DNA of 61,635 nucleotides, counting the filler, from Sanchytrium tribonematis (taxonomy: Eukaryota): assembly GCA_018985235.1 (NCBI GenBank). It is 15 parts of 15 records of this genome, joined end to end, with 100 filler letters (N's around TTAATTAATTAA, not from the genome) between each part and the next. Parts side by side here need not be neighbours in the genome. Positions count along the whole stretch, not along the records: positions 5,898 to 8,736 come from JADGIG010000966.1; positions 8,837 to 11,670 come from JADGIG010000967.1; positions 11,771 to 32,479 come from JADGIG010000095.1; positions 32,580 to 35,413 come from JADGIG010000968.1; positions 35,514 to 38,344 come from JADGIG010000969.1; positions 38,445 to 41,265 come from JADGIG010000970.1; positions 41,366 to 44,183 come from JADGIG010000971.1; positions 44,284 to 47,101 come from JADGIG010000972.1; 7 more parts are not named here. One strand, written 5' to 3'. A program made the translations under genes and the position numbers. Of this stretch, positions 6,878-55,833 are shown piece after piece (position 1 is the stretch's first letter; each line of letters starts with the position of its first letter). A model generated the notes under the pieces. The model had not been told where the DNA came from. It did no database searches and saw only the letters and a list, made by a program, of their open reading frames with translations.

Positions 6878-8549
6878 ATGTATTCAAGTTCAAATCCTCA
6901 CGAGCAGTCCTGGCATCAGCAAATTACTCCTGATCAGCGCCTTCAAAATATCCAAGATACGGCGCAATTATTAAGTATGTTTGCTGATGAAAATTCAAAA
7001 GAAAAAGTTAATAATATCGCACAACGTTTTGAACACTCTGTATTTGTCTCCGCAACCTCATTGCAAGGATATATTCAGTCTATTCAAATGAAACTATCTC
7101 AGCTACGTTCCAAAGCATATGGCGATGACCAATCTTTAAATACGGTTACCCCCATTTCAACGAACCAAGCTGCTCCTTCACAGGTTAGTTTAAATACCCC
7201 ATCCCAAATAATGCCATCTACTCCTCCTCAGCAACAATTACCAACAAATGCTCCGTCGCAATCAACGGCGCCTCAAAGTGCTACAAGCCCTCAAAGTTTA
7301 ACTATGCCTATTCAAAATGTCCAAATTCATCCTTCTCAGATGCCCCATTCTATGCCTCCTAGTGAGCTATATCAATTATCTCCGCCTCCTGTTCAGGCCC
7401 CACAGCAACAATTTACAAGAAGACAAGTTGAGGCCAGCCAATTAGAACAAATTAGACACTCTACACATGCACTAGCGCAGCTATTTAATCATGCAAATAG
7501 AACTCTTCCTTACCACAAAGCAACGCTTGGAGAACAAAATTGGCAAAAATTTATGACCATCAATCAAATGTATCACCAGCACATGACTGCGCTGCAAGAT
7601 AATCAAGTTGTCTTTTTACACGAACAACTATTACAAGTTAAAGATCACCTAGAACATCTTTTACACAGTACAAATACCATTGAAGCTAATGTTGCGGATT
7701 TACAGCCTCTTCCGTTGAATCCGATGGCAAACCCCAATCAAATGGGTCTTCTCCCACCTGTAACTGATAAAGAAACAGCTTGGATGGACCATGTTCGAGT
7801 GAATGTTTTTGGAATGGCCCAAGACTTGCAGAATTTGAATACGGTTTATGAATTTCCCCGAACAACAATCAAGTCCATAGAAAACGATATTGGGCCTGAT
7901 CACATGGTCAATCCGTTTAATTTATTCGACCAAAAGGAGCTCGACTTCACTAGATTTATAACACATGAGAAAATAGCCAATAAACGAAAAGCAGAAATCA
8001 CTGCTCCTGTGGAAAAGAAACAAAAAGTAATGGATGTCACAAATTTGAAAATGACAGATGTGGGAAACGAATGCGACAATACAGAGCTTGTACATTTTCT
8101 CAATTTAAGCTGGAATATGGCTTGGAGAGGAAAAGAAAGTATTTTACCTGGCTATGTTACAACCTGTATCTCTGATATGAAATCAAATAACAAGAAACCA
8201 ACTAGAGTAATATATTACTGTGGAAAGCCAAATCCAGATGAGTGGTGGCTTGAGCATGATAATTTATTTTTGCGGGTCGTGGGAATCGAATCAGAAGGTA
8301 TTTGTATATAATTTAGGAAATGTATTTCTTATATCATCTCAATATCCCAAAATGGTTAAAGTAGACATGAAATCAAATGATGATAATAGCGGTGTCAGTG
8401 AATGGATAAACAATACATTTATGGACGAATTAGAAAATATAAGCATAAGTAATAGCACGGGAGATAAAAGCGACCTACCGATAAATGTGCGGATAGTGAC
8501 TCTGGACGACTTTCGCTCTATTAGGGGCAATTGCCTTGAAGGATTTTGA
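6878..8549 (+). CDS. Mediator Med15/Gal11-like protein (KIX domain + Q/P-rich); exons 6878-8297, 8317-8549
   Basis: N-terminal KIX-like segment (AQRFEHSVFVSATSLQGYIQSIQMKL) and a Q/P-rich linker. A 19-nt intron joins the ORF to the 8220-8549 frame. Confidence 0.65.
8298..8316 (+). other. 19-nt spliceosomal intron
   Basis: GTATTTGTATATAATTTAG; removal extends the ORF by ~77 codons. Confidence 0.8.
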
Positions 8550-8836
8550 CAGTAAATAAGTGGATATACATACTTTATTACCAAAGACCTTCAAATAACT
8601 GTCTTGCTTGTTGAATATTGTATTTAACAATAGCTAATTCAATATCATCCTTGACAGCGACAAGAATATAAGTATTGCTGGTTAAGCAATCTAATATTAG
8701 CTTCACCTCGTCACTTTGAATTTCCATTCCTTGAAANNNNNNNNNNNNNNNNNNNNNNNNNNNNNNNNNNNNNNNNNNNNTTAATTAATTAANNNNNNNN
8801 NNNNNNNNNNNNNNNNNNNNNNNNNNNNNNNNNNNN

Positions 8837-54667: not shown

Positions 54668-54693
54668 TAAATATTTATTTTTGTGACAAAAGG

Positions 54694-55833
54694 ATGAGCC
54701 AAGTCGAAATTGAACCATTGCTCACGCCACAAGAAGACCCTGTGGATGCTGTACCTGAGAATTTTGATACAGATATGCGCAATTATCATTCCAAACTGAC
54801 TAAGATTGCATTTGTGAGTAATTACAGCTTATTTAGTTGAGAACACAAAAGTTGGTCGATATTGGGACTTGTTTGACGCTATCGTTAATATTTTCATCTG
54901 CGCAAACTATTTAGTATTGGTAAGCCATGTTGATCTGGTTTATGTAGGTGAAAATAATGAGTGCCCTCCCAATCTGGAGAGATACTACAAATTTTGCAGG
55001 GAGTACATTCCAATCGAACTTCAAGGATGGGATGCTGCTCTTTGCATAATATTATTTGCATCTTGTTTTTGCAGGGCAGTTTTTGGTTTGAACATGCGTT
55101 ATTTTTCTACAATTGACGGGATCGTGACAATGCTGACATGCTTTCCTCCAATATTTATTTTCTTAAAAAGGTCTATTCACGATGATAGGGAATGGACATT
55201 GTCATATCTCGGAGCTCAATATGTTGCATTTCTTTATCCAATTAGATGGTTTAAGCTGAAAACCAGTTTGAAAGTTTTACTTTTGCCAAGCAGAACCAGC
55301 CTGCCTATATTCACAAATCTTTCACTGGTATCTCGTAAAGTAATTGGTCTCACTATAACTATATCGCTGATGATTTTGATGGTATCTTGCTATGTTCATA
55401 TATTTCATATCTATGATGTGAATGAGAAGGAAAGGGAAAGGGAAAGAAGATCTAAAGACCCTAAAGCTCCCGTCCAAATGGACCAGACATTCTGGGAAAT
55501 GGTTTTTTTCGTTGTTATGAGTTCTACATCTGGTCTAAGCACCTCTATTATTGGTGTAGACACATGGTATATTCAATTGCTCTTAGTCATGGTGATCATT
55601 ATGGGAATATTTTACTTGCCACCACAAGTTGCAAATTTAATTGAAGTAGTGAAAAACCGAAGCAGTTATTCGTTTCCATACAAAGTAGAACAAGATACAA
55701 AACACATTATAATCTCTGGTGCATTTTCCTCTCAAAGTCTTTTGGAATTCCTGTGGGAATTTTATCATGCAGATCATGGAATATCTACTTCGAATACCAA
55801 CGCTGTAATTTTGTATCCAGAAGAGCCTTCCGA
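54694..55833 (+). CDS. BK/Slo-like channel alpha subunit (3' truncated); exons 54694-54817, 54837-55833
   Basis: S1-S6-like TM segments, then the RCK1 start KHIIISG..LLEFLWEFYHADH...VILYPEEP. Confidence 0.75.
54818..54836 (+). other. 19-nt spliceosomal intron
   Basis: GTAATTACAGCTTATTTAG; links ATG 54694 in frame to the channel ORF. Confidence 0.85.

Follow-up and report, generated by a model that had tools for sequence, protein, structure and literature searches.

The locus raises the question of whether a fungal nucleus can harbor spliceosomal introns of a single, extremely small size, and of what would set that size. Introns shorter than about 22 nt occur in few lineages, none of them fungal in the literature searched. 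The window, meaning the whole stretch of 61,635 nucleotides analysed here, consists of 15 separate small contigs of Sanchytrium tribonematis joined by linkers. Sanchytrids are alga-parasitising fungi. The first-pass annotation described ten introns of exactly 19 nt in this window. All ten were recovered with the same coordinates and strands, each 19 nt long with GTA at the start and AG at the end, and excision gave an open frame in every case, with the motifs DLQAMDRAH, YLIDEP, DIDWEYP, PYRNSKLT, IRTRLQA and LLVVVYH reappearing. The GT...AG ends of all ten are those of U2-type introns. Frame restoration in ten of ten, homology-best excision in three of three genes and positions common to relatives indicate that the segments are almost certainly spliceosomal introns, as first proposed. 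The ten introns sampled come from a single 61-kb window, sit on four of its small contigs and were all found through frame breaks.

The length class is not a product of chance. An unbiased scan of the window for GT..AG segments of 8-150 nt joining two long open frames returned 13 candidates at 19 nt, namely the ten introns and three others, and 0-5 candidates at each other length from 8 to 30 nt. Three scans of the 61-kb window found no intron of a length other than 19 nt, and no further introns with short first exons were found in it. Stop-free 3n insertions were sought in the window Rli1, Mot1 and kinesin genes, and these three contain none. When splice signals were ignored and all frame-restoring excisions were compared by homology only (3,104 candidates for Rli1, 2,555 for Mot1 and 3,880 for kinesin), the 19-nt GT-AG excision came first or tied for first in all three genes tested, the ties being slides that yield an identical protein. 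Contigs re-assembled from a DNA run at 130-165x had no indel over 12000-31999, a span with six of the ten introns; since the run may be the source of the assembly, this comparison tests the assembly only.

Homology support for the junctions is strong for five genes. The Rli1/ABCE1 gene (+ strand, 42478 to the contig edge) carries a phase 0 intron at 43936..43954, directly before the second Walker B motif, Mot1/BTAF1 (+, contig edge to 15330) a phase 2 intron at 14978..14996, and kinesin-14 (+, contig edge to 54667) a phase 0 intron at 54448..54466; in each the 19-nt excision is the best by homology. The EF-hand mitochondrial carrier gene (-, 18220-17116) has a phase 2 intron at 17303..17321, with positions 5-31 of Pfam Mito_carr matched before the junction and 33-92 after it. 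In the GH18 chitinase gene (-, 30838-29509), the phase 1 intron at 30306..30324 splits the DxDxE catalytic motif, and the two sides match Pfam GH18 at 2-113 and 109-317. Support is good for two further genes. One encodes NAE1/APPBP1, the NEDD8 E1 regulatory subunit (+, 26033-27323; phase 2 intron at 27151..27169), where exon 1 matches human APPBP1 and exon 2 the C-terminal E1 motif, APPBP1 residues 490-523. The other encodes a membrane protein of unassigned family (-, 20597-18278; phase 0 intron at 18518..18536), whose homologues P0365-P0367 have the exon 2 region and whose closest match, P0364, ends at about the same place. Support is weak for the Acyl_transf_3 gene (-, 23710-22246; phase 1 intron at 23373..23391): exon 2 covers Pfam positions 31-300, exon 1 alone gave no match in the profile search, and LLVVVYH is a sequence that we take to be the N-terminal acyltransferase motif. 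The remaining two junctions are without homology support and are placed by consensus and frame only, that of the KIX-domain (Med15-like) gene (+, 6878-8549, Pfam KIX_2; phase 1 intron at 8298..8316) and that of a BK/Slo-type potassium channel gene (+, 54694 to the contig edge; phase 1 intron at 54818..54836), whose exon 2 matches Slo1.

The ten introns share the consensus GTA-W-T-T-N3-R-Y-T-W-A-T-T-T-AG. The donor, GTAWTT, is weak, with no G at +5, positions +7 to +11 vary freely so that only splice letters are common, and conservation is concentrated at the 3' end, where T at +12 (-8) and A at +14 (-6) are present in all ten. Inner G+C is 13%, compared to 37% in the flanks. Because of this conservation, the A five bases from the intron end is likely the branch point, and a YURAY-like branch motif near the 3' end can be recognised by conservation only. 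The motif near the 3' end, TAATTTAG, is much like TAAYTT. Minor, or U12-type, introns carry an RTATCCTT donor and a TCCTTAAC branch motif; the GTAWTT donor consensus here does not match this type. The first-pass annotation proposed scanning with GTA-N8-T-N-A-N3-AG; in the window the pattern has 18 matches, versus 3-12 for other lengths, and at such numbers the bare motif is a poor finder alone. Two high-scoring 19-mers were rejected as chance matches, one at 13698 on the strand antisense to Mot1, the other at 2076 inside an open retroelement frame. Neither Rfam nor tRNA scans returned a hit in the window, and no snRNA was found in it.

The host is a fungus, as the term fungal-like had suggested; it is a sanchytrid, and its closest named proteins are those of Amoeboradix gromovi. 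The phylogeny check suggested for Rli1, a quick tree of one gene with 33 rows, groups it with A. gromovi (Rli1 match at 89%, grouping at 100% SH-aLRT). The top named match of the kinesin is from A. gromovi, and A. gromovi Mot1 has the highest identity over the full query (64%). This placement covers three of the four intron-bearing contigs, those of Rli1, kinesin and Mot1, the fourth being that of Med15. Public proteins of A. gromovi and relatives are cut off at the same Rli1, Mot1 and kinesin positions. Rli1 is cut off alike in A. gromovi P0121 and in ENA P0002 and P0003, kinesin in A. gromovi P0243 and in ENA P0242 and P0244, and A. gromovi Mot1 P0167 ends at the place of the window intron. 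The intron position is thus common to three of three sanchytrid relatives for Rli1, three of three for kinesin and one of one for Mot1. Furthermore, in 18 of 117 other kinesin matches the ORF call runs into K-V at the same codon, a common position which points to an old intron site. None of the best 120 matches per search was a sanchytrid Rli1, Mot1 or kinesin in spliced, full-length form. When JGI metagenome contigs were searched for the Rli1 junction, allowing a gap of 0-30 bases, one locus only was returned, L001, which was rejected as a relative; it belongs to an unrelated eukaryote with a 62% identical Rli1 and no intron there.

Read-through tails of the truncated proteins allow the introns of relatives to be decoded. 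The length is 19 nt in three of four informative cases (A. gromovi Rli1, A. gromovi kinesin and P0003), and A at -6 is forced in these three. The chance of an Rli1-type tail is about 1 in 10,000, and that of the first eight residues of the kinesin-type tail about 6 in 1,000. Judged by eye, the P0364 tail is compatible with 15, 19 or 21 nt, and it was excluded from the count; those of P0242, P0244 and P0167 end inside the intron and give position but no length. The fourth case, the P0002 Rli1 intron, rules out 19 nt and fits 21 nt ending in TAG, with T at position -8 and A at -6, such that the 3' geometry is kept and the 5' part is longer; this is one case decoded from a peptide, and a longer intron carrying an internal stop would fit it too. 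The claim of a fixed length therefore stands for the window (ten of ten) but fails for the clade, where the length is sharply peaked rather than fixed. An ultra-short class of the Stentor, Mikrocytos or nucleomorph type is defined by nearly every intron of a genome lying within 1-4 nt of a single length below about 22 nt. The quantity that looks fixed, as far as the decoded introns indicate, is the distance from the branch point to the AG.

The ten segments lie in ordinary housekeeping genes and are best explained as inherited U2-type introns that have very probably shrunk to near the smallest size likely to be spliceable in this fungus. Recognition would treat the intron as a single short unit, rich in AU and with GTAWTT as its weak donor. 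The A at +14 would act as the branch point, with U2 pairing through YTWAY, giving a lariat with a loop of 14 nt and a tail of 5 nt. With no polypyrimidine tract present, a constant spacing from the branch point would determine which AG is used, and Slu7 and Prp18, the second-step factors, would then be dispensable. A steric limit on the donor-to-branch spacer may set the lower bound on length, with deletion pressure acting from above, and the balance may leave 19 nt dominant yet allow introns a little longer, such as 21 nt. Copies left unspliced run into a stop within 1-35 codons and would be directed to nonsense-mediated decay. An alternative, suggested in the first-pass annotation, is a 19-nt ruler by which the spliceosome would gauge total length starting at the donor, with the branch motif secondary. 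Exactly 19 nt in ten of ten window introns and three of four decodable introns of relatives is what such a ruler predicts, the donor consensus is weak, and donor-anchored and acceptor-anchored readings are indistinguishable in a window that has one length only. However, the conserved letters lie at the 3' end, and P0002, albeit as one peptide-decoded case, is incompatible with 19 nt but accommodates 21 nt while keeping the T(-8)/A(-6)/AG end, making a ruler unlikely.

It is also possible, if somewhat improbable, that the introns are real but poorly spliced, most transcripts retaining them as a brake or switch as in Encephalitozoon. Donors are weak here, and precedents exist: 30 of 37 short introns of E. 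cuniculi are described as spliced in less than half of transcripts (PMC3629993), and the 16-nt introns of Mikrocytos as spliced at 63% (PMC10245619). Retention would nonetheless deprive Rli1, Mot1, kinesin and chitinase of catalytic motifs, and A. gromovi has far more splicing proteins than microsporidia. Poor splicing is compatible with the shrunken-intron explanation, from which it differs in efficiency only. A search of sequencing runs with 14000-23999 listed one DNA run and no RNA run, which has no bearing on expression.

Recent insertion of a small mobile element, introner or MITE-like and spliceable by chance, would account for the uniform length; retroelements are present in the window, and seven of the ten introns fall within the final fifth of the coding sequence, unlike the 5' bias expected after long intron loss. 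Introner elements were rejected because there is no common inner sequence (+7 to +11 are free and only splice letters recur) and positions are common across sanchytrids, including A. gromovi despite a Mot1 only 53% identical; the kinesin site is even common to distant eukaryotes. Recent insertion is accordingly very unlikely. Least credible is the absence of introns altogether, the breaks reflecting assembly or amplification errors, pseudogene frameshifts, or ribosomal frameshifting or hopping. True frameshifts in multicopy genes do occur in the window, about 37028 and 45800. The break near 37028 is a one-base deletion relative to two tandem paralogues and was discarded as an intron. Candidates of 25 and 26 nt near 45734-45798 were discarded as well: the DUF6625 gene in which they lie belongs to a multicopy family, and small indels set its other copies apart, among them a single base lacking at 45802. 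The genes with the ten introns, by contrast, are single-copy essentials by family. Homology demands that 19 bases be removed, not one, GT/AG ends and A at -6 are found in ten of ten, identical breaks occur in other genomes, and re-assembly gave no indel at six introns. This explanation is already largely refuted.

The available spliceosome data come from A. gromovi; the window contributes only a gene with RRM and cyclophilin domains (15349..16206, + strand; Pfam RRM_1 and Pro_isomerase), presumably PPIE (PPIE/Cyp33 architecture) given its domain order and likely a spliceosomal protein of the organism. In the A. gromovi annotation, 15 of 24 spliceosomal KEGG groups looked up are present. Rows exist for Prp8, Brr2, SF3B1, U2AF65, U2AF35, SF1 (weak, 7e-10), U1-70K, U1A/U2B'' and Prp40, for Prp16, Prp17, Prp22, Cwc22, Cwc25, Isy1 and PPIE, and for the debranching enzyme Dbr1, Upf1 and Upf2. 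With Prp8, Brr2, SF3B1, U2AF and U1-70K among the groups present, this is no microsporidian-style remnant. Slu7 and Prp18 have no row by KEGG number, KOG number or name, and U1C, Prp28, Prp39, SF3B6, Smu1, RED, Aquarius and Yju2 have none either; some of the latter set are probably annotation misses. Of the 7,220 proteins, 3,755 have an entry in the table, the genome evolves fast and its genes were called without introns, and the search went by identifier and name, so missing rows are weak evidence and Slu7, Prp18 and others are candidate losses, the only hint here of the modified spliceosome conjectured in the first-pass annotation. In yeast, Slu7 is described as unnecessary when the branch point lies <=9 nt from the 3' site (PMC10158995). 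It is tentatively suggested, with doubt prevailing, that the 19-nt class extends to the whole Sanchytriomycota as the shortest of any fungal group, perhaps even of opisthokonts at large, with U1, U2AF and SF1 kept, Slu7 and Prp18 shed, and a Stentor-like 5-base geometry reached by convergence.

The introns were overlooked because published sanchytrid protein sets were called without allowing for them, using TransDecoder on genomic contigs (PMC8371127), in agreement with the earlier suspicion that annotation had missed them. The literature search, which did not extend to the supplement of PMC8371127, found no paper on sanchytrid introns. Public sanchytrid proteins are consequently shortened: Rli1 has 493 aa rather than about 600, and Mot1 and kinesin-14 lack their last motifs. 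Claims of gene loss in the phylum that use those sets need re-annotation, with a minimum intron length near 15. A fungal case bears on what sets the lower size limit of introns, as the spliceosomal proteins align well to yeast structures, and allows a direct test of Slu7/Prp18 loss against a fixed short branch-to-AG distance. If the pattern were true phylum-wide, the 5-nt tail would be a shared structural floor of the spliceosome, and sanchytrids would offer the natural model nearest to yeast in which to study it.

Comparison with known systems supports the verdict of a new, independent fungal case of ultra-short introns, as far as sequence can establish it; the class is shorter than any fungal class found in print. 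Independence from ciliates and nucleomorphs holds, the host being a sanchytrid fungus and the lineages unrelated. The ciliates and nucleomorphs named in the first-pass annotation are indeed known for such introns, but Mikrocytos (16-17 nt), Encephalitozoon (22-76 nt) and myxozoans (median 22 nt) were omitted. Myxobolid myxozoans and dicyemids, with medians of 22-27 nt, likewise represent independent shortening in parasitic opisthokonts, although their medians are longer and a single-length class is not demonstrated in the account of PMC13644364. Encephalitozoon cuniculi is a fungal-side parasite whose short introns have a TAAYTT branch motif near the 3' end, like TAATTTAG here, whereas its introns are longer, variable in length, strict in donor and about 37 in total, in a separate lineage with a strongly reduced spliceosome for which no U1 is reported (PMC3629993, PMC2483917). 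The parasite Mikrocytos mackini shares a narrow size class and conserved sequence, but is a rhizarian described with a spliceosome of 17-19 proteins, while A. gromovi has U1-70K, U2AF and SF1; its metabolic and transporter genes are described as lacking introns, whereas the carrier, chitinase and acyltransferase genes have them here (PMC10245619). Nucleomorph introns of Bigelowiella natans (18-21 nt, typically cited as 19 nt) agree in size range, GU-AG ends and AU-richness, yet belong to a relict endosymbiont nucleus with about 3 introns/kb and, as described, no identifiable donor motif (PMC6461891, PMC2483917), compared to a fungal host nucleus in which introns are sparse (ten in 61 kb) and the 3' motif is clear. 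The heterotrich Stentor coeruleus (15-16 nt) is likewise GU-AG, AU-rich and very narrow in length class, with the same geometry of a branch A six from the end and a 5-nt tail, and is reported to keep most spliceosomal proteins and PPIE with Slu7 and Prp18 not found, like the A. gromovi annotation (PMC9505925). The Stentor lariat loop is 10-11 nt, versus 14 nt here, and its introns are RNA-supported with no branch consensus described, whereas those of the unrelated sanchytrid carry YTWAY and are known from DNA alone (PMC9505925).

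The ten 19-nt segments in the window are very probably spliceosomal introns, belonging to a class sharply peaked at 19 nt that is common to sanchytrids. As the first-pass annotation had claimed, each begins with GTA, ends with AG, is 19 nt long and leaves an open frame on removal (10/10). They lie at 8298-8316 (+; Med15-like), 14978-14996 (+; Mot1), 17303-17321 (-; mitochondrial carrier), 18518-18536 (-; membrane protein), 23373-23391 (-; acyltransferase), 27151-27169 (+; NAE1), 30306-30324 (-; GH18 chitinase), 43936-43954 (+; Rli1), 54448-54466 (+; kinesin-14) and 54818-54836 (+; BK channel). 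Rather than a single piece of chromosome, the window consists of 15 contigs (G+C 32-37%) of 2.8 kb each, except one of 20.7 kb, with stop-codon linkers between, and the introns are distributed over four of them. When every GT..AG segment of 8-150 nt in the window was scanned, 13 segments of 19 nt bridged two long open frames, compared with 0-5 at any other single length between 8 and 30 nt. Homologue sets served for three genes, Rli1, Mot1 and kinesin; there, all frame-restoring excisions near the break, with any end letters, were scored against a profile of non-sanchytrid proteins. The 19-nt GT-AG excision was top or joint top among 3,104, 2,555 and 3,880 candidates, respectively, and scores dropped on either side of 19 nt. 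Pfam and PDB matches continue over the junction in the carrier, chitinase and NAE1, and the region encoded by exon 2 of the membrane protein is present in homologues. The acyltransferase junction is weakly supported, by an N-terminal motif, and the Med15-like and BK-channel junctions are supported by consensus and frame.

Contigs re-assembled from X1, the one DNA run listed and possibly the source of the sequence itself, matched positions 12000-31999 at 130-165x. They differed by one substitution and by no indel over this span, which includes six of the ten introns. The re-assembly breaks at short repeats within 23740-26030, 2.3 kb without a long ORF inside an otherwise packed contig, where no Rfam or tRNA match was found.

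The ten introns share the consensus G T A W T T N N N R Y T W A T T T A G, in which every intron has T at +12 and A at +14 (10/10), T occupies +15, +16 and +17 in 8/10 each, and G is found at +5 in 0/10. Their inner G+C is 13%, and phases 0, 1 and 2 are represented by three, four and three introns. Retention would bring in a stop codon within 1-35 codons. Seven of the ten lie in the final fifth of the coding sequence (binomial p about 0.001, for a pattern spotted post hoc), the reverse of the 5' bias that intron-poor genomes usually show. A scan of the window found no further introns behind short first exons. In all features tested, these are, by sequence, ordinary U2-type introns.

Judged from its proteins, the window organism belongs to the sanchytrids, the algal parasites of Sanchytriomycota, and is not Amoeboradix gromovi itself. 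Sanchytrium, the second genus described in the group, would be the natural candidate. Its place among sanchytrids follows from the matches and tree of Rli1 and from the closest named kinesin-14 and Mot1, which among the matches listed are also from A. gromovi. Among the Rli1 matches listed, the best two, both at 89%, are ENA proteins, followed by other fungi with ~72%, and the cluster of one ENA match includes a EukProt protein of A. gromovi. RLI1 phylogeny had been proposed for the placement: in a quick tree of 33 proteins chosen from 121, the window protein, A. gromovi and both ENA proteins form one clade with 100% support. This clade is long-branched, and the quick tree gave no resolved sister group for it.

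The window holds several other features. A nucleoside diphosphate kinase fused with a Dpy-30 motif is encoded at 31854-32479 (+), a layout we take to be that of the flagellar radial-spoke protein NME5/RSP23; the flagellum of sanchytrids is described as non-motile. The BK/Slo-type calcium-activated potassium channel gene (54694-55833, +) starts 27 bases past the kinesin stop codon. A histone H3 gene (44285-44512, -), with several copies in the run, has two extra residues in its N-terminal tail, an 11-residue text where the usual one is presumably APSTGGVKK. One reverse-transcriptase element lies in two tandem pieces (2-1324 and 1566-2851, +), with Atlas neighbours carrying HTH_animal and RVT_1 and a motif order that we take to be Penelope-like; a second is at 32653-34179. 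Three tandem gene copies at 35514-37372 (+), the third with a one-base deletion near 37028, resemble bacterial SelL-related redox proteins (NCBIfam NF040769, below cut-off) and possibly reflect gene transfer from bacteria. A DUF6625 gene (45329-47101, -), of a multicopy tandem family whose copies differ by indels, and a DUF2306 gene (52175-52834, +) belong to families that are, we presume, mainly bacterial.

Public sanchytrid proteins were predicted without introns (PMC8371127), and therefore they read into an intron and then stop. The Rli1 tails are ADI-VITTNLVLD in A. gromovi and ADI-VIIIHIVFN and ADI-VINKLI in P0003 and P0002, ENA proteins of sanchytrid relatives, compared with a 12-residue counterpart in the window. 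Mot1 of A. gromovi ends in DWNPMQDL and its kinesin in RNSK-VAKTNIVD; two ENA kinesins end in RNSK-VNS and RNSK-VM. Back-translation of the tails against the known next exon yields a length of 19 nt and requires A at -6 in three of four decodable introns (those of A. gromovi kinesin and of Rli1 in A. gromovi and P0003). A length of 30 or 27 nt, with the intron terminating at the stop, is a formal alternative for these tails, but it would take a chance resemblance of the tail to an exon (for Rli1, about 1 in 10,000). In P0002, 19 nt is excluded; its tail fits an intron of 21 nt that ends in TAG and carries T at -8 and A at -6, or a longer one. Thus, the earlier description of a fixed length holds for all ten window introns but not for P0002, and should probably read as a fixed branch-to-AG distance with a length of mostly 19 nt. 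The kinesin site itself appears to be old, since 18 of 117 non-sanchytrid matches listed also read into K-V at the same codon; alternatively, introns may have been gained in parallel at this AAG|GT sequence.

In the mechanism we propose, A at +14 would be the branch point, U2 would pair with YTWAY, and the lariat would have a 14-nt loop and a 5-nt tail. Since a pyrimidine tract would not fit, the AG would be selected by its set spacing from the branch. In the spliceosome, the donor pairs with U6 at +4 to +6, and U2 pairing spans roughly +9 to +15; as this leaves only two or three bases unpaired, a length of 19 nt is plausibly close to the steric minimum.

That the spliceosome has changed is a lead that can be tested. 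In PMC8371127 Supplementary Data 1, the annotation table of A. gromovi, which covers about half of the proteins and was queried by identifier, there are rows for 15 of 24 spliceosomal KEGG groups, as well as for Cwc25, Dbr1, Upf1 and Upf2. No row was found in this half-coverage table for Slu7, Prp18, Prp28, U1C, Prp39, SF3B6, Smu1, RED, Aquarius or Yju2; given that coverage, the missing rows are leads only. The Slu7/Prp18 gap is the fitting one because yeast Slu7 is dispensable when the branch-to-AG distance is 9 nt or less (PMC10158995), and neither Slu7 nor Prp18 was found in Stentor, which has a 5-nt tail like that proposed here (PMC9505925).

Full-text searches, which reach few subscription journals, found no publication on sanchytrid nuclear introns; they took in passages of a 644-genome fungal intron survey. 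The genome paper (PMC8371127) and the TPPP paper have 'intron' in a reference title only, and a fungal gene-family study omitted the phylum Sanchytriomycota. The sanchytrid class is very likely a new, independent fungal case of a known phenomenon. It works like the tiny introns of Stentor (15-16 nt; PMC9505925), Mikrocytos (16-17 nt; PMC10245619) and the Bigelowiella nucleomorph (18-21 nt; PMC6461891, PMC2483917). The shortest opisthokont classes in the literature found are that of Encephalitozoon and that of myxozoans, the latter with medians of 22 nt (PMC13644364). Encephalitozoon introns are longer, at 22-76 nt, and have a TAAYTT-like 3' motif in common with those described here (PMC3629993, PMC2483917).
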